A stretch of DNA of 30,664 nucleotides from a virus. Lineage: Duplodnaviria > Heunggongvirae > Uroviricota > Caudoviricetes. Where the stretch lies: positions 1 through 30,664 of IMG/VR virus record IMGVR_UViG_2802429251_000007. One strand, written 5' to 3'. The position numbers and the translations under genes were made by a program. The notes below the pieces were generated by a model. It did no database searches. It was not told where the DNA came from and was given only the letters and a program-made list of their open reading frames with translations. Positions 7,021 to 24,487 of the stretch are shown piece after piece; position 1 is the first letter of the stretch, and each line of letters opens with the position of its first letter.

Positions 7021-7203
7021 ATGAGCCGAAAACACTGGACACACAGAATGCCGCGAACGGCGGCGAAATGGGCACTGGTAGCGATACTGGTGCCTTTTTT
7101 ATTGGTGGGGTGCGTCAGCCTGGATAAGGCGCGCCAACTTTTAGATACAGCTTCTCAGGTCTGCAAAATTGTCGACAGTGTTCGGCAGTGTATGCAGAAC
7201 TGA
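7021..7203 (+). CDS. small lysis-cassette lipoprotein (60 aa; o-spanin-position gene)
   Basis: MSRKHWTHRMPRTAAKWALVAILVPFLLVG|C carries the lipobox LVGC. The mature part is about 30 aa with three Cys. The gene lies directly after the endolysin. Confidence 0.7.
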   Translation: MSRKHWTHRMPRTAAKWALVAILVPFLLVGCVSLDKARQLLDTASQVCKIVDSVRQCMQN

Positions 7204-18819: not shown

Positions 18820-19007
18820 CGTTTAACAGCCTGCCGGACGGGCTGTCCTACCTTCTCAATCCGGTTGACGCCGGGTTAATTCCTTATACAGCACTTAAAG
18901 ATGGCTCTGTCGATTTGTACGACATTGCTCTCTTGAATGACCATCTGGCGGTAAAAGCGGATAACCAGCGGCGCATTGAGAAATGGAGAGAGGATAATGA
19001 ACGCTGA
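18367..19007 (+). CDS. tail assembly chaperone, frameshift-extended form (about 213 aa; join 18367..18771 with 18771..19007)
   Basis: Analogue of lambda G/GT. The extension ...FAYTPYQHDAEPATGLTFNSLPDGLSYLLNPVDAGLIPYTALKDGSVDLYDIALLNDHLAVKADNQRRIEKWREDNER has no start codon of its own and ends just inside the tape measure gene. Confidence 0.55.
18762..18773 (+). promoter_or_regulatory. -1 programmed frameshift slippery run GGGAAATTTTTT (heptamers G_GGA_AAT and A_AAT_TTT)
   Basis: In the chaperone frame the codons read CTG GGA AAT TTT TTG. Both overlapping heptamers fit X_XXY_YYZ. The -1 frame is open from 18714 to the TGA at 19005-19007. Confidence 0.55.
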
Positions 19008-20985
19008 AACTATTAAAGATTTCCTCGTCTCGCTTGGCTTCAGTGTGGATGATGCAGGAGCGAAAAAGTTCGGTTCTGTCCTCGCCGGTACAACGGCAAA
19101 TGTCATCAAAATGGGGCTGGCCGTTGAAGGAGCCGCGCTGTCCGTGGTGGCCTTCACGGCTAAGATCGCCTCCGGTCTGGATAATCTTTACTGGGCGTCA
19201 CAGCGCACCGGCGCGACAGTCCAGGGAATTCAGTCTATTGGCTATGCGGTTTCGCAGGTTGGCGGCAGCGTGGACGCTGCGCGATCTTCTCTGGAAAACC
19301 TCTCCCGGTTTATTCGTAATAATCCCGGGGCGGAGGGATTTCTGAATCGCCTGGGCGTACAGACCCGTGATGCCAGCGGTAACATGCGTGACATGGCCGC
19401 TATCTTTACGGGCGTTGGACAGAAACTCAGCAGCATGCCGTATTACCGGGCTAACCAGTATGCGCAGATGCTGGGCATTGACGAAAATACCCTTATGGCG
19501 ATGCGCCGGGGTGTGGGTGGCTTCTCCGGGCAGTACAGCGCAATGGCGAAAGCTATCGGCTTCAATGCTGACGAGGCGGCCAGAAGCTCCAACAAATTTA
19601 TGACCTCCTTGCGTGAGTTTAGCGCGATGGCAGGCATGGCCCGTGACAAAATCGGCTCTAATCTTGCGGGTGGGCTTGCAGGTTCGCTGGACACCCTGCG
19701 CCGCCATATCCTGGACAACTTCCCTCGTATCGAGCAGACCCTGACGAAAGCCATAAAAGGCATTCTGGCGCTCGGGGATATTATCGGGCGGCTGTTCTTC
19801 AGACTGATTGAGGGGACATCAGGCCTTATCACCTGGTGGCAATCGCTGGATAAGCAAACGCGGGAGTTGATCTCGCTGTTTGGCGCACTGACGATTGCGC
19901 TGCGCATTCTGAACAGTACGTTCTGGATGTCGCCGGTTGGCCTCATTACCGCGCTGGCGGCGGGGATTGCCCTCCTGTGGGAGGACTATCAGACCTGGAA
20001 GGAAGGCGGCGACAGCCTGATTGACTGGGGCAAGTGGAAACCGGAGGTCGATGCCGCGCTGAAGATGGTTCGTGACCTTAAAACGACCGTTAACGATCTG
20101 GCGAAAGCGCTGGCGAAACTACTCAATATTGACCCCAAATCATGGTCCCTGAAGTGGGATTTCAGCAACTTCATCGACCAGATGGGCGAATTCAGCAAAA
20201 TGCTGAACATGATCGCCGACCTGCTCAACGCTATCAAAGATGGACGCTGGGCTGATGCCGTCAGCATCGGCAAACAGATACTTAATCAGGGCAGCGAAAA
20301 TCCGTCAGCGATGCCGATGGTTACAGACAGCGCTAACAGTACTGCCGACTGGATTAAAGAGCACTGGGGATTCGATCCCCGCAGTGTGGGCCGGACGGTA
20401 CGCGGCTGGTTTGGTGATGATGAGCCGGAACAACATGCACAGGCTACGAAACGAGGAGAACGGAATAACAATCCGGGAAACCTTAATTTTGCTGGTCAGG
20501 CGGGGGCTTCTCTTGAACACCCGGGCGGGCGATTTGCCAGATTTGAAACTGCCTTTGATGGATTACGGGCTCTTGCTCGTCAGTTAATGTTGTACGCCGG
20601 GCGAGGAATAAACAGTGTGGAAAAAATTATCTCTACCTGGGCACCTGCCTCTGATAATAACAACACAACTGCGTATATCAGGGCTGTATCGCAACGACTG
20701 GGAGTGGATCCCCGGGCTGCCCTGAATATGAGCGATCCGAAAACCATGTCAGCATTGATGAGCAGCATTATCCAGCATGAAAATGGAAGAAATATCTATT
20801 CTCGAGAGCTGATTAATAAGGCTGCCGTGGCGGGAATTAGTGGCAAAATGACAGAGGTTAACCAGCAAAATACCTACCACATTTACGGTGGCGGAGATCC
20901 GCACGCTGTCGGTAATGAGGTTGCACGTCGGCAACAGTCTGCAAATGCTCAGGTTATGCGAAGTAATCAGGTGAGGGTGGGTTAG
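18997..20985 (+). CDS. tail tape measure protein
   Basis: 662 aa, ATG 18997 follows GGAGAGAGG. It has long helical and hydrophobic segments and a conserved-looking C-terminal module (RNNNPGNLNF...ISTWAP...NNTTAYI). Confidence 0.85.
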   Translation: MNAETIKDFLVSLGFSVDDAGAKKFGSVLAGTTANVIKMGLAVEGAALSVVAFTAKIASGLDNLYWASQRTGATVQGIQSIGYAVSQVGGSVDAARSSLENLSRFIRNNPGAEGFLNRLGVQTRDASGNMRDMAAIFTGVGQKLSSMPYYRANQYAQMLGIDENTLMAMRRGVGGFSGQYSAMAKAIGFNADEAARSSNKFMTSLREFSAMAGMARDKIGSNLAGGLAGSLDTLRRHILDNFPRIEQTLTKAIKGILALGDIIGRLFFRLIEGTSGLITWWQSLDKQTRELISLFGALTIALRILNSTFWMSPVGLITALAAGIALLWEDYQTWKEGGDSLIDWGKWKPEVDAALKMVRDLKTTVNDLAKALAKLLNIDPKSWSLKWDFSNFIDQMGEFSKMLNMIADLLNAIKDGRWADAVSIGKQILNQGSENPSAMPMVTDSANSTADWIKEHWGFDPRSVGRTVRGWFGDDEPEQHAQATKRGERNNNPGNLNFAGQAGASLEHPGGRFARFETAFDGLRALARQLMLYAGRGINSVEKIISTWAPASDNNNTTAYIRAVSQRLGVDPRAALNMSDPKTMSALMSSIIQHENGRNIYSRELINKAAVAGISGKMTEVNQQNTYHIYGGGDPHAVGNEVARRQQSANAQVMRSNQVRVG

Positions 20986-21876: not shown

Positions 21877-22941
21877 ATGTCACAGAACTGGATGAGACAT
21901 TTCGAGCTGCAGCTTGTGGACGGGAACGGTCAGGGAATTGAGCTAAGTGATTTCAAAGTCACCTTTACGATCGACTGGTTCAACATCAGCAGCGCGTCCC
22001 GGGTAGGGACTATCAAAATTTATAACCTCTCGGCAGATACTGTGAACCGAATCACTGGGAAGGAATTTTCGAAAGTGCGGCTGATTGCCGGTTACGACGG
22101 TATCGCGCCGGAGGTGGCGGCAAGCGACGTCGGGACCGTGCGCGAAGTCGACGCGGCGGACGTGGGCCAGACAGATGGCCGCAACTACGGACTGATTTTC
22201 AGCGGTGAAATTCGCTACTCGGTCACAGGAAAAGACAGTCCGGTTGATACCTACGTCCTGATTCAGGCAGCAGATACTGATCTGGCATTTGCCACCAGTA
22301 TAACCTCACAGACGCTGGCTGCCGGTTACACGGTCGCAGATGTGAACCGTGCGCTGATGAAAGACTTTGAGGCCAAAGGCGCGACCGAAGGACTGACGCC
22401 TGAAATGCCTGCTACCGTATACCCTCGAGGGCGGGTGCTGTTCGGCATGACACGGCATCTTATGGATAACGTGGCCGGACAATGTGGCGCAACATGGCAA
22501 TTTGTGGACGGTCAGCGCCAGATGGTGGCGAATAACGAGTATGTTCACGACGCGATTGTGCTCAACAGCGCCACCGGGCTTATCGGCATGCCGCAGCAGA
22601 CTATCGGCAACGGTGTAAACGTCCGCGCTCTTATTAATCCGAACATCCGGGTTAACGGGCTTATTCAGCTGGATCAGGCTTCCGTGTACCGCACCGCGCT
22701 GTCGAACAATGATATTGCGATGGCTGGTGGGCAGATCACCGACCAGAACACGGACGGAAATATCACGCTAAGCGGCACCACATCGCAGCCTGCCAGCATC
22801 GCAACGGATGGCGTTTATATTGTGCGCGGGATTATGTACACTGGCGACACAAGGGGCCAGGCGTGGTACATGGATATGATGTGCTTTGCTCGAGGTGCTA
22901 GTGATATTCCTAGCCAGTCAGCGATGAATCGAGGTGCATAA
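21877..22941 (+). CDS. baseplate hub-like protein, 354 aa
   Basis: A large protein located between the tape measure module and the spike. The call is positional with weak family recall. Confidence 0.55.
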   Translation: MSQNWMRHFELQLVDGNGQGIELSDFKVTFTIDWFNISSASRVGTIKIYNLSADTVNRITGKEFSKVRLIAGYDGIAPEVAASDVGTVREVDAADVGQTDGRNYGLIFSGEIRYSVTGKDSPVDTYVLIQAADTDLAFATSITSQTLAAGYTVADVNRALMKDFEAKGATEGLTPEMPATVYPRGRVLFGMTRHLMDNVAGQCGATWQFVDGQRQMVANNEYVHDAIVLNSATGLIGMPQQTIGNGVNVRALINPNIRVNGLIQLDQASVYRTALSNNDIAMAGGQITDQNTDGNITLSGTTSQPASIATDGVYIVRGIMYTGDTRGQAWYMDMMCFARGASDIPSQSAMNRGA

Positions 22942-22943
22942 TA

Positions 22944-23669
22944 GTGAGCAGGCTTGCGATAACCACAATCGTATTTTCTCTTTTTTTAACTTCATGTAGT
23001 TGGGATCCTAATGGTGCTAAAGCGCAGGGAAAATGGCTATCCCAAAAAAATGAAGAAAAACAAGCGTACGATAAGCAAGTTGAGGAGAGCCAGAAAAGCA
23101 GGCTTCAAATACAGCGCGAAGAAAAGTCTCAATTTGAAGTTTCACATCCAGAGGTTATCGTTGCTGGTGTTGGGAACGAGCTTAAAAGTAAGGGTGCAGA
23201 ATCTTTGCGAGATGCGTACAACAGCATTCCATTCGTAACTCGTTATCCGGGAACCACGGACCCTAACAAAGTTTATACCTATGTCGGTGACTACAAATTA
23301 AATTTGCAACTGGTTAACACATCTGTGCTTTCTCAGATCTCAGATTGCAAACGCATTTCAGCGTATGCCGATGTTGATATTAATCGTACTTGCTTCAATC
23401 AAATTGGAAATGATTTGAGTTTGTTTGCATCTGTAATTAAAGACAAAAATATTACTGGAATTGCAAAAAAAGCAGCTCTACGAGATTCAACTTACGGAAC
23501 TAAAATTGATTTTGGTCATGCTGCGCGTTTAGCAAAAATGCATGCCACTTTATGCCAAAAGCAGGGCGGTAAAGGATTTGTCAAAATGTCGACTGTAGCT
23601 GTGCCTTGCGGCTCTTCAGGCGATGTAATTAACTATCGAAGCGCCGGTAAGATGGGGCTTATAAACTGA
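22944..23669 (+). CDS. lipoprotein of unknown function (241 aa), moron inside the baseplate operon
   Basis: GTG start 7 nt after GAGGTG. Signal peptide with lipobox LTS|C (MSRLAITTIVFSLFLTSC) and Ser at +2. Visibly AT-richer than both neighbours. It is followed by its own strong terminator. Confidence 0.75.
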   Translation: MSRLAITTIVFSLFLTSCSWDPNGAKAQGKWLSQKNEEKQAYDKQVEESQKSRLQIQREEKSQFEVSHPEVIVAGVGNELKSKGAESLRDAYNSIPFVTRYPGTTDPNKVYTYVGDYKLNLQLVNTSVLSQISDCKRISAYADVDINRTCFNQIGNDLSLFASVIKDKNITGIAKKAALRDSTYGTKIDFGHAARLAKMHATLCQKQGGKGFVKMSTVAVPCGSSGDVINYRSAGKMGLIN

Positions 23670-23690
23670 AAAGATCAAATTAGTCACATA

Positions 23691-23716
23691 AAACCCGCCG
23701 GATGGCGGGTTTTTTG
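23691..23716 (+). terminator. strong rho-independent terminator after the lipoprotein moron
   Basis: Stem ACCCGCC (23693-23699) / GGCGGGT (23704-23710), loop GGAT, flanked by AAA upstream and a T6 run downstream. Confidence 0.85.
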
Positions 23717-23734
23717 CTTTCTGGAGCCTACTAA

Positions 23735-24487
23735 ATGGCAGTATCTGACCAGACCCGCAGCGGCGACCTTGCCGAAACATTTAAATCTGAACGGGAAACA
23801 ACAAAGAACCAGATCCGTGTCGCCTTGCCAGGCATTGTTCAGTCATTCGCTCCTGATGCGGTGACGGCGGTTGTACAGCCTGCTATCCGTTACGTTGAAA
23901 TTGATAACGACGGCAACCGCATTACCAAAAATTACCCATTGCTGGTGGATGTGCCAGTGGTATTCCCGCGTGGCGGAGGCTGTACGCTAACGTTTCCAGT
24001 TAAAGCCGGTGATGAATGCCTGGTGATTTTTGCCGATCGTTGTATTGATTTCTGGTGGCAGAGTGGCGGGATACAGGAGCCGGTCGATGACCGGGTGCAT
24101 GATTTATCGGATGCTTTCTGTATCGTCGGGCCGCAGTCTCAGGCGCAGAAAATAAGCGGAATAAGCACCAGTGGCGCGCAGCTGCGTAGTGACGACGGCA
24201 GCACCTATTTTGAGCTTAATCCTGATACCAGGAAAATTAAAATTGTCGCTCCGGGTGGTCTTGATGTGGTTGCCCCTCTGGCTGATTTTTCTGAGAAAGT
24301 AACCATTCATGGCCTGTTAACCTGGATGGGGGGCATGGTGGGGTCTGTTGTTTCTGGTGTGGCTTCAAAAATCACTGGTGCTGTTGAGTTTTTGGGTAGC
24401 GTGAAGGCTAACGGCAAGCTAATCGATGATACGCACACTCATGGTGGTGTTCAGCGCGGTGGAAGCAATACCGACGGAGTAAACTGA
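23735..24487 (+). CDS. central spike protein (gp138 / phage spike family)
   Basis: The motifs ...ALPGIVQSF...VQPAI...PLLVDVPVVFPRGGG..LTFPVKAGDECLVIFADRCID.W... and the C-terminal DDTHTHGG (HxH apex motif) are typical of gp138/gpV-type membrane-piercing spikes. Confidence 0.75.
   Translation: MAVSDQTRSGDLAETFKSERETTKNQIRVALPGIVQSFAPDAVTAVVQPAIRYVEIDNDGNRITKNYPLLVDVPVVFPRGGGCTLTFPVKAGDECLVIFADRCIDFWWQSGGIQEPVDDRVHDLSDAFCIVGPQSQAQKISGISTSGAQLRSDDGSTYFELNPDTRKIKIVAPGGLDVVAPLADFSEKVTIHGLLTWMGGMVGSVVSGVASKITGAVEFLGSVKANGKLIDDTHTHGGVQRGGSNTDGVN

Follow-up and report, generated by a model that had tools for sequence, protein, structure and literature searches.

In phage HK97, the envelope protein gp15 is encoded in the tail operon and blocks genome entry without masking the receptor; this first-named moron, a small YebO-family protein of the inner membrane, possesses its own promoter and terminator and is expressed from the prophage (PMC3594210). 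The lipoprotein Llp of phage T5, with a mature length of 61 amino acids (aa), faces the periplasm, contains a disulfide and blocks reinfection and the loss of progeny on debris (PMC9586334). Lambda bor and lom, of foreign base composition, encode envelope proteins in or near the late region antiterminated by Q, Bor being an outer-membrane lipoprotein, and an own promoter as well as an own terminator are among the classical criteria for a moron (PMC3594210). Phage T4 encodes Spackle, a periplasmic inhibitor of the tail lysozyme (PMC7677548). In this study, we analyzed a lipoprotein gene situated between two baseplate genes, hub and spike, in an E. coli prophage, a virus of the Caudoviricetes (IMG/VR record IMGVR_UViG_2802429251_000007, positions 1 to 30,664). 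The whole stretch of 30,664 nt is referred to as the window, and positions are those of the window unless another locus is named.

There is strong support for the lipoprotein gene being one allele of an exchangeable cassette (approximately 22885-23691) in a SEN34-like, lambdoid-regulated myovirus prophage. Its product is best read, with a rough probability of 0.45, as an outer-membrane lipoprotein made from the late operon and serving as an envelope accessory for phage exclusion. Like HK97 gp15, it is an envelope accessory whose gene has a deviant base composition and is set among the tail genes of a prophage with lambdoid regulation, and for neither is exclusion taken to depend on receptor masking. 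It differs in being an outer-membrane-type protein of 223 aa with no detectable promoter, a shared terminator and a function that is predicted only. T5 Llp and Cor are phage-encoded lipoproteins with a disulfide which face the periplasm from the outer membrane, as predicted here. However, the Llp gene adjoins the gene for the receptor-binding protein and is matched to the receptor, whereas the present gene lies between hub and spike and its product has four times the size of Llp, bears a predicted long helical stalk and shows no sequence relationship to it. In contrast to bor and lom, which are independently expressed in lysogens, no separate transcription unit is evident for the lipoprotein gene, and no Bor-family Pfam match was obtained. 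Spackle (97 aa) is likewise a phage-encoded periplasmic protein, and the tape measure protein (TMP) of this phage bears an endolysin-like domain as a possible target. Spackle is, however, soluble, early and specific for the gp5 lysozyme, and the lipoprotein shows no similarity or co-variation that would point to such a role.

The slot between the hub and spike genes

The open reading frame (ORF) extends from GTG 22944 to TGA 23669 and comprises 241 codons. Its ribosome binding site (RBS), GAGGTG at 22931-22936, is spaced 7 nt from the start and lies inside the last codons of the hub gene, the stop codon of which (TAA, 22939-22941) ends 2 nt before the GTG. An earlier interpretation made from the letters alone (the sequence-only reading) was borne out in start, length, RBS spacing and hub and spike neighbors. 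The surrounding genes are those of a baseplate and encode Dit-like, Pam3_gp18 plug, E217_gp41 hub, gp138_N/Apex spike, Baseplate_J and DUF2612 wedge proteins.

The gene is more AT-rich than both neighbors, as had been noted by eye: the GC content is 0.408 and that of third codon positions 0.335, compared to 0.547 and 0.623 for the hub gene and 0.514 and 0.494 for the spike gene. Segments of 726 nt as GC-poor as the lipoprotein gene make up 3.9% of those in the window, and the rest of them all fall into a second AT-rich patch at 28.0-29.2 kb. In 5/5 backbones tested, which take in a low-GC Budviciaceae phage and homologues only ~45% identical, the lipoprotein gene lies 8-15 GC points below its neighbors. 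Since the offset is kept in diverged backbones, AT-richness appears to be a lasting trait of the gene and not merely a sign of recent arrival.

In an alignment of slot variants (alignment A2), the sequences are identical up to position 22884 and diverge thereafter. Also, the type of the hub C-terminal tail follows the cassette type (B, A1, A2 or A3) in 23 loci, and thus the last 19 hub codons belong to the cassette. The exchanged segment therefore begins at about 22885, inside the hub gene, and not at 22931, where the sequence-only reading had placed the boundary of the feature. On the right side, similarity between loci returns at a hairpin upstream of the spike gene. Between the window and the related prophage L008, 22885-23689 is 99.75% identical and the hairpin with the spike RBS 100%, compared to 94.8% for the 5′ part of the hub gene and 93.4% for the spike gene. 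A near-identical cassette in flanks of 93-95% identity indicates recent cassette exchange between diverged backbones. A gene of foreign composition which is horizontally exchanged and not structural, as a moron would be, is supported. Window 29142-30664 resembles L025:12685-14207, a region beside pphA, yebW and rsmF in E. coli CE0021a which includes the remnant of a pin-like recombinase. In further carriers of this lipoprotein, the prophage adjoins ybhB-bioA. The prophages with the cassette thus differ in their chromosomal site and in their fiber module.

Relatives matching the hub and spike genes and not the interval were the phages vB_EcoM-689R2, 683R1, Yersinia YP3, Salmonella SEN34 and Klebsiella Mulock. 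Among 5426 complete E. coli genomes, 350 (~6%) matched the hub/spike segment, some of them partially, and 12 of these 350 carried the lipoprotein gene, all with at least 99% identity. The carriers came from mixed sources, including isolates from cattle and from human urine, wounds and faeces, and no enrichment of the gene in any pathotype was seen among them. In the slot variants sampled from E. coli chromosomes at the position of window 22885-23691 (L011-L018), the first gene encodes in 8/8 cases a secreted protein of 110-115 aa, here called family A (phrog_3443), which is followed by differing AT-rich cargo. Among this cargo are a protein annotated as HEPN and a related one of 142 aa, each of them encoded 3′ of a gene for a partner of ~250 aa, a YafO toxin, the gene of which is preceded by a partner gene, membrane proteins with DUF4282 or DUF2335, small membrane proteins, and other unnamed genes.

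In the window, the lipoprotein (type B) holds the place of family A, and further cargo is absent. Homologues of B with 38-88% identity occupy the first slot position in at least nine other lineages, including a long form of 360 aa, and Hafnia phage yong1 carries a short form of 136 aa located 50 nt 3′ of the hub gene. Among the loci examined, A and B genes were never seen in one slot. The two families thus exclude each other while sharing the genomic position, an RBS in the hub tail, and export to the envelope. Family A genes start -1 to +3 nt and lipoprotein family genes -4 to +8 nt from the hub stop, both on near-identical tails. They differ in that family A is a predicted beta-barrel, mostly with a Sec signal and not a lipobox, and comprises >410 clusters across Enterobacterales, always directly 3′ of the hub gene, compared to the helical head and 14 clusters of the lipoprotein family. 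The family A model, an 8-stranded beta-barrel with a pLDDT of 76, was dropped as a functional clue, as it is merely a generic small beta-barrel. In SEN34, the annotation truncates family A; by our reading, the position-1 gene would start at an unannotated TTG 3 nt past the hub stop, which brings back the signal peptide.

The sequence-only reading had described the gene as wedged into the baseplate operon and had suggested looking for relatives in which both genes adjoin. Every relative sampled holds other genes there, and hub and spike were directly adjacent in none of them, the shortest slot measuring ~680 nt among the 60 listed. Because the slots of relatives hold genes of equal or greater length, the lipoprotein gene is a replacement and not added DNA. 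As far as the compared sequences tell, the slot is a two-tier hypervariable accessory hotspot in which a position-1 exported protein is followed by cargo and the hairpin closes the interval. With the P2/P4 prophage defense hotspots (Rousset et al. 2022, as cited in PMC10884400) it shares conserved flanks, hypervariable AT-rich toxin-antitoxin/HEPN cargo and recombination in the flanks. It differs in its position between baseplate genes, its two tiers, its closure by a hairpin, and the promoter-like sites that its cargo often bears. No description of the hub-spike hotspot or of the lipoprotein family was found in a literature search that was not exhaustive. The two-tier slot with its conserved hairpin is the more useful by-product of the analysis: independent of the function of the lipoprotein, it can be recognized by the succession of hub C-tail, cargo, conserved hairpin and spike, and can be mined for HEPN, toxin-antitoxin and small membrane genes.

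In 23 loci, the position-1 gene begins -4 to +8 nt from the stop codon of the hub gene, with the short form of yong1 (50 nt) as the exception, and its RBS is located in the last hub codons. A sigma-70-like site with at least 9/12 consensus positions was not found in the 3′ 300 nt of the hub gene or in the lipoprotein gene; the best candidate (8/12) would initiate 3′ of the GTG, and a consensus scan may miss a weak or non-sigma-70 promoter. The start 2 nt past the hub stop, together with this negative scan, suggests that the lipoprotein gene is co-transcribed with the late operon. Position-2 cargo, in contrast, is preceded by a promoter-like site at a distance of 19-55 nt in L003, L004, L010, L012, L014 and L018. 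Such sites at position 2 and none at position 1 make the position-2 cargo look like true morons, and the position-1 genes, lipoprotein included, like coupled members of the late operon. The gene had been considered a classic moron on account of its composition and its own terminator. Of this signature, the deviant GC content stood, whereas the terminator turned out to be common to slot variants and no own promoter was found. An AT-rich gene with an adjacent terminator is not sufficient for a moron call. Also, extra DNA absent from relatives, a further mark of morons, was not observed here, as the slot was always filled in the relatives sampled.

The hairpin AAAACCCGCC-GGAT-GGCGGGTTTT at 23690-23713 with its T-run ranks first among the terminator-like sites of 12.6 kb (folding energy -18.7 kcal/mol, z = -2.0). 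In 17/18 related loci with unrelated cargo, hairpin, T-run and spike RBS precede the spike ATG at a fixed distance, and 30 further E. coli genomes match the query solely over 23690-23734. The loops vary, and the changes in the stem are compensatory, from CCCGCC/GGCGGG to CCCGTC/GACGGG in yong1 and GCCCAC/GTGGGC in Mulock and L007. This conservation and the compensatory changes argue for a hairpin under selection which is a backbone element closing the slot and does not belong to the lipoprotein gene. The strong private terminator of the sequence-only reading is thus a real hairpin but not a private one.

A Q-like late antiterminator gene precedes the genes for holin, endolysin and structural proteins, and the related prophage L008 encodes NinG, an annotated Q antiterminator, holin and RrrD. 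Polymerase modified by the Q protein of lambda or phage 82 passes intrinsic terminators. We infer that the Q-like protein acts on this operon, so that late transcription would pass the hairpin; the apparent paradox of a terminator in the middle of an operon would thereby be solved. Directly 3′ of the Q-like gene, Rfam matches to c4-a1b1, isrK and C4 antisense RNA were found at 3405-3606. An IS1 transposase ORF (3924-4427, region 3730-4427) is inserted downstream, before an ORF6N antirepressor-type gene, and may disturb late-gene or antirepressor control in the prophage.

Signal, family and predicted structure of the lipoprotein

For detection of lipoboxes, the motif [LVI][ASTVI][GAS]C, its Cys falling within positions 15-35, was used in combination with a positive n-region and a hydrophobic h-region. 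The signal peptide MSRLAITTIVFSLFLTS, with predicted cleavage before Cys18, agrees with this PROSITE PS51257-type rule, with an n-region M-S-R (positive), an h-region LAITTIVFSLF, the lipobox L-T-S-C18, and Ser at +2. In full-length family members, L/I/V-x-[GAS]-C was recognized by inspection in ~37/40; the strict rule holds for 28/47 sequences. The remaining members lack part of the N-terminus or bear a signal of the signal peptidase I type. Under the Lol rule of E. coli, Asp at +2 is the signal for retention in the inner membrane, and lipoproteins with other residues are transferred to the outer membrane. Across the family, position +2 is S, G, A, T, R, N or V and never Asp, and the lipoprotein of the window is predicted to be sorted to the outer membrane. 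The lipoprotein signal with Ser at +2 noticed before was thus recovered by rule, and the four additional Cys residues of the globular part (135, 150, 204 and 222) are present as well. The ORF is read as a genuine gene for an exported lipoprotein.

A word-indexed search of 5.8 billion proteins assigned the family to 14 clusters from Escherichia, Citrobacter and Budviciaceae, and an exhaustive profile search of 1.84 billion representatives yielded 34 family matches. In an alignment of homologues down to 40% identity (A1), 27 columns are invariant, including the lipobox Cys, HPE (68-70), FVTR (97-100), C135-x-R-x-SAY, C150, K175, AAR (193-195), C204 and C222, while H192 and H200 are kept in at least 90% of the sequences. 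Compared with homologues of 77-85% identity, dN/dS is 0.11-0.17, which indicates purifying selection on the lipoprotein gene and, with the invariant columns and the confident structural model described below, speaks for a real gene. The part comprising signal and helix diverges fastest, with 49-55% identity where the head shows 73-86%.

In the AlphaFold2 model (pLDDT 85.6, pTM 0.72), a 46-residue helix (22-67, pLDDT 87-94) leads into a head which is for the most part helical. Q, K and E abound in the long helix, and a hydrophobic heptad seam is absent. Its appearance is thus that of a rigid spacer made of one helix, ~7 nm in length, and the coiled coil was ruled out; of the Lys/Glu/Gln-rich, coiled-looking segment described before, the composition held and the coil did not. 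In several RefSeq E. coli records, the gene is labeled by PGAP as 'HMG-box domain-containing protein' (L008:20001-20726). This label was rejected as a likely artefact, probably a spurious match of the Lys/Glu/Gln-rich helix in an exported lipoprotein.

The sequence-only reading had not recognized the protein family, and neither did the databases. No family was found in Pfam at E <= 0.1, none in NCBIfam, nothing among the PADLOC-DB defense models at E <= 1, and noise alone in PHROGs (E >= 0.008). A profile search against PDB sequences gave nothing meaningful, and a Foldseek search against BFVD gave a single match, the unnamed 324-aa protein H9C1A6, and no informative fold. By tblastn, the lipoprotein had no match in 50,697 phage records; with long and distant family members as queries, the sole match in phage records was the short homologue in yong1. 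One long homologue lies in a metabolic chromosomal context and a distant homologue in an integrase/primase element, so that the family is not strictly phage-bound. This distant member, P0045 (356 aa), is located in L020:5124-13985, an element with integrase, TumE-type toxin-antitoxin and DUF927-primase genes beside phage head genes (portal, Mu F), which looks like an inserted satellite or integrative element. Family and fold are undescribed; the kind is known, since accessory lipoproteins of the envelope are encoded by other phages, too, and recombination hotspots are familiar as their setting.

Functional readings of the lipoprotein

Phage 689R2, which is of the A2 type and lacks the lipoprotein, is 97.9% identical to the window in the TMP C-terminal region, 98.5% in Dit, 100% in the plug, 98.2% in the hub and 94.4% in the spike. 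A tail tip of 94-100% identity without the lipoprotein indicates that the latter is accessory and not structural. The virion proteins modeled for E217 do not include gp42, the gene of which separates those of hub gp41 and tip gp43. An exported, Cys-rich, outer-membrane-type protein which is accessory to the tail is strongly supported as the description of the predicted product.

The lipoprotein gene does not adjoin the fiber gene, being located 3 kb upstream of it. B genes with at least 99% identity occur with at least three different fiber tips, among them a pinE-linked invertible-type region (L023), a glycine-rich type and others, and homology to the fiber of the window stops at 26876-27159. 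No co-variation of the lipoprotein with fiber tip, TMP C-terminal region, Dit, plug, hub or spike was found, and masking of the cognate receptor as well as specific anti-self inhibition are thus without support. The analogy to receptor masking by Llp and Cor drawn in the sequence-only reading was weakened by these differing fiber tips and by the fourfold size of the protein.

According to the exclusion reading proposed above, position 1 would be coupled to the hub gene by translation and filled mostly by the phrog_3443 beta-barrel, in a rare minority by the lipoprotein. The latter would be transcribed with the late tail operon, with Q-modified polymerase reading through the hairpin, at which unmodified transcription entering or beginning in the slot, e.g., from cargo promoters, would stop. 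After export by Sec, the protein would receive its lipid at Cys18, and the Lol pathway would deliver it to the outer membrane, into the inner leaflet. From there, the polar helix would extend into the periplasm and keep the helical head, stabilized by disulfides, roughly level with the peptidoglycan, and the producing or lysogenic cell and its debris would become refractory to phage entry. The protein would act on a component of the host envelope or on a step of penetration that takes place in the periplasm, and would not mask the receptor of the own fiber. That the lipoprotein makes cell or debris refractory to phage entry is a tentative claim, held at somewhat below even odds, with HK97 gp15, T5 Llp and T4 Spackle as precedents. 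If the lipoprotein or the beta-barrel does block entry, this would add a new fold and possibly a new periplasmic mechanism to prophage superinfection exclusion, and would bear on the prediction of host range for phage therapy in E. coli, Klebsiella, Salmonella and Yersinia, where the tail module is common.

Several points weigh against phage exclusion. The PADLOC, Pfam, NCBIfam and fold searches were all uninformative, and a promoter scan by consensus carries little weight, whether for or against. Late-only expression would leave the protection of a lysogen unexplained. The disulfides and the geometry of the stalk are themselves predictions, and the missing co-variation with tail-tip proteins leaves a specific action against the own phage type without support. 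Furthermore, the conserved polar residues H68, E70, R100, R137, Y141, K175, H192, R195 and H200 could equally form the site of an enzyme or bind a host molecule unrelated to phages.

An unlikely alternative is a self-contained classical moron with its own promoter active in the repressed prophage and its own terminator, the product of which masks the phage receptor like T5 Llp or Cor. The deviant GC content, the hairpin directly 3′ of the gene, the horizontal exchange, a slot shared with defense-like cargo, and the precedent of Llp and Cor agree with it. The hairpin, however, is common to slot variants, no promoter-like site was found, and the gene abuts the hub stop. Moreover, the mature lipoprotein has 223 aa compared to 61 aa for Llp, the gene is not beside the fiber gene and does not co-vary with the fiber tip, and the phage records gave no tblastn match.

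The lipoprotein could also act as a factor of host fitness or virulence (serum resistance, adhesion, stress tolerance) in the manner of Bor/Iss, TraT or Lom and unrelated to phage exclusion. An outer-membrane-type lipoprotein on a prophage, a size near that of TraT, carriers from human urine, wound and faeces as well as from cattle, and a distant homologue in an ordinary chromosomal context would fit such a role. We regard it as quite improbable since no Pfam match, and therefore none to Bor or TraT, and no NCBIfam family was obtained, since the apparent co-expression with late tail genes would be odd for lysogenic conversion, and since the carriers (12/5426) of mixed sources show no pathotype enrichment.

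A late accessory of lysis or egress which remodels the outer membrane or the peptidoglycan at lysis or affects lysis timing is a rather remote explanation. The layout implies late co-transcription, an anchor with a stalk of ~7 nm would reach the peptidoglycan, and an exported protein is found at position 1 in every member of the lineage; spanins, too, bridge the periplasm. Against this, the gene is 16 kb away from the holin/endolysin cassette, and the protein has no C-terminal transmembrane segment and is not proline-rich, unlike u-spanin and o-spanin. It can be swapped with an unrelated beta-barrel on an identical tail and occurs in non-phage contexts. A spanin as such was ruled out by location and architecture, i.e., a polar C-terminus and a helical mature protein of 223 aa.

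Equally remote is an inhibitor similar to Spackle, in which the position-1 proteins would bind the endolysin-like C-terminus of the TMP of an incoming phage. The C-terminal third of the TMP (20296-20982; gene 18976-20985) matches the solved structure of a phage endolysin, 7q47_A (E 2.5e-13), and Gp29 9vvp_L (E 3e-20), which indicates that the tail carries a peptidoglycan-hydrolase domain; this domain was missed by Pfam and NCBIfam in the present copy, and a lytic transglycosylase is annotated in relatives. With the stalk setting the head near the peptidoglycan and with T4 Spackle as precedent, such binding is conceivable, but the head of the lipoprotein resembles no inhibitor and the A/B type does not co-vary with the TMP C-terminal region. 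A 66% identical lipoprotein occurs with a TMP C-terminus of 49% identity, and the A2 phage with one of 97.9%.

More broadly, and with low confidence, the position-1 genes may encode a hitherto unrecognized class of late, periplasm-facing factors of at least two unrelated folds, the phrog_3443 beta-barrel and the stalked lipoprotein, which would be coupled by translation to the hub gene in SEN34/E217-type myoviruses of Enterobacterales and would target tail penetration at its periplasmic stage. In such a class, a TMP-borne hydrolase or channel formation of incoming phages, for example, would be neutralized, and the head of the lipoprotein would be a new inhibitor fold.

A virion or baseplate-assembly component that merely looks foreign, as the position between two baseplate genes and the apparent co-transcription would allow, can be dismissed as highly improbable, because the lipoprotein is absent from phages with 94-100% identical tail tips and from all but 12 of the 350 hub/spike matches, and because a cleavable lipoprotein signal exports the protein from the cytoplasm, where tails assemble.

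Coordinates and further features of the window

Table 1. Positions of the cassette, its borders and related elements (window coordinates, except for family A, which is given for three other loci).
Feature	Position	Strand	Remarks
Q-like late antiterminator gene, DUF1133 / Phage_antitermQ	2579..3385	+	upstream of holin, endolysin and structural genes; likely lets late transcription pass the hairpin
Last 19 hub codons (FARGASDIPSQSAMNRGA, ending in the stop codon)	22885..22941	+	left recombination boundary; holds the cassette RBS GAGGTG
Lipoprotein signal peptide, aa 1-18, lipobox L-T-S-C	22944..22997	+	PROSITE-type rule; Cys18 = predicted lipidated first mature residue
Long polar helix, aa 22-67, Q/K/E-rich	23007..23144	+	AlphaFold2; predicted rigid single-helix stalk of ~7 nm
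Conserved, mainly helical head, aa 68-241, with stop codon	23145..23669	+	four invariant Cys; HPE, FVTR, CxRxSAY and HAARLAKMH motifs
Intrinsic-terminator-like hairpin with T-run	23690..23715	+	core stem CCCGCC/GGCGGG, loop GGAT; right slot border
Spike-gene RBS GGAG (23723-23726) and ATG (23735-23737)	23723..23737	+	conserved backbone directly 3′ of the hairpin
Family A (phrog_3443)	L016:1165-1500, L011:1166-1507, L017:1168-1515		secreted, ~112 aa, two conserved Cys

In the early region of the prophage, an Rfam match to the sok antitoxin RNA at 1166-1340 (108.6 bits) indicates a toxin-antitoxin locus of the hok/sok type. Directly 3′ of the M15 endolysin gene, a 60-aa ORF (7021-7203, +) carries a clear lipobox (FLLVG followed by C) and two further Cys and matches phrog_7528 (E 2e-37), a family with no assigned function. 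This second small phage lipoprotein of the window has a spanin-like location, yet it is unlike Rz1, and no spanin role is claimed for it. The second, stronger AT-rich patch at the prophage end (28039-29600, GC 0.35-0.39) contains a minus-strand gene for a hexapeptide-repeat acyltransferase-like protein (28414-28986, phrog_2154) with a terminator having a 13-bp stem (28406-28377). Acyltransferases are encoded at the same place in the related prophages L008, L024 and L031, and the gene is a candidate for lysogenic conversion by O-antigen acetylation. An Rfam match to IS009 (189 bits, 28135-28333) lies within the 3′ part of the tail-fiber-assembly gene 27792-28370, and the presence of pinE in L023 suggests an invertible fiber region there.

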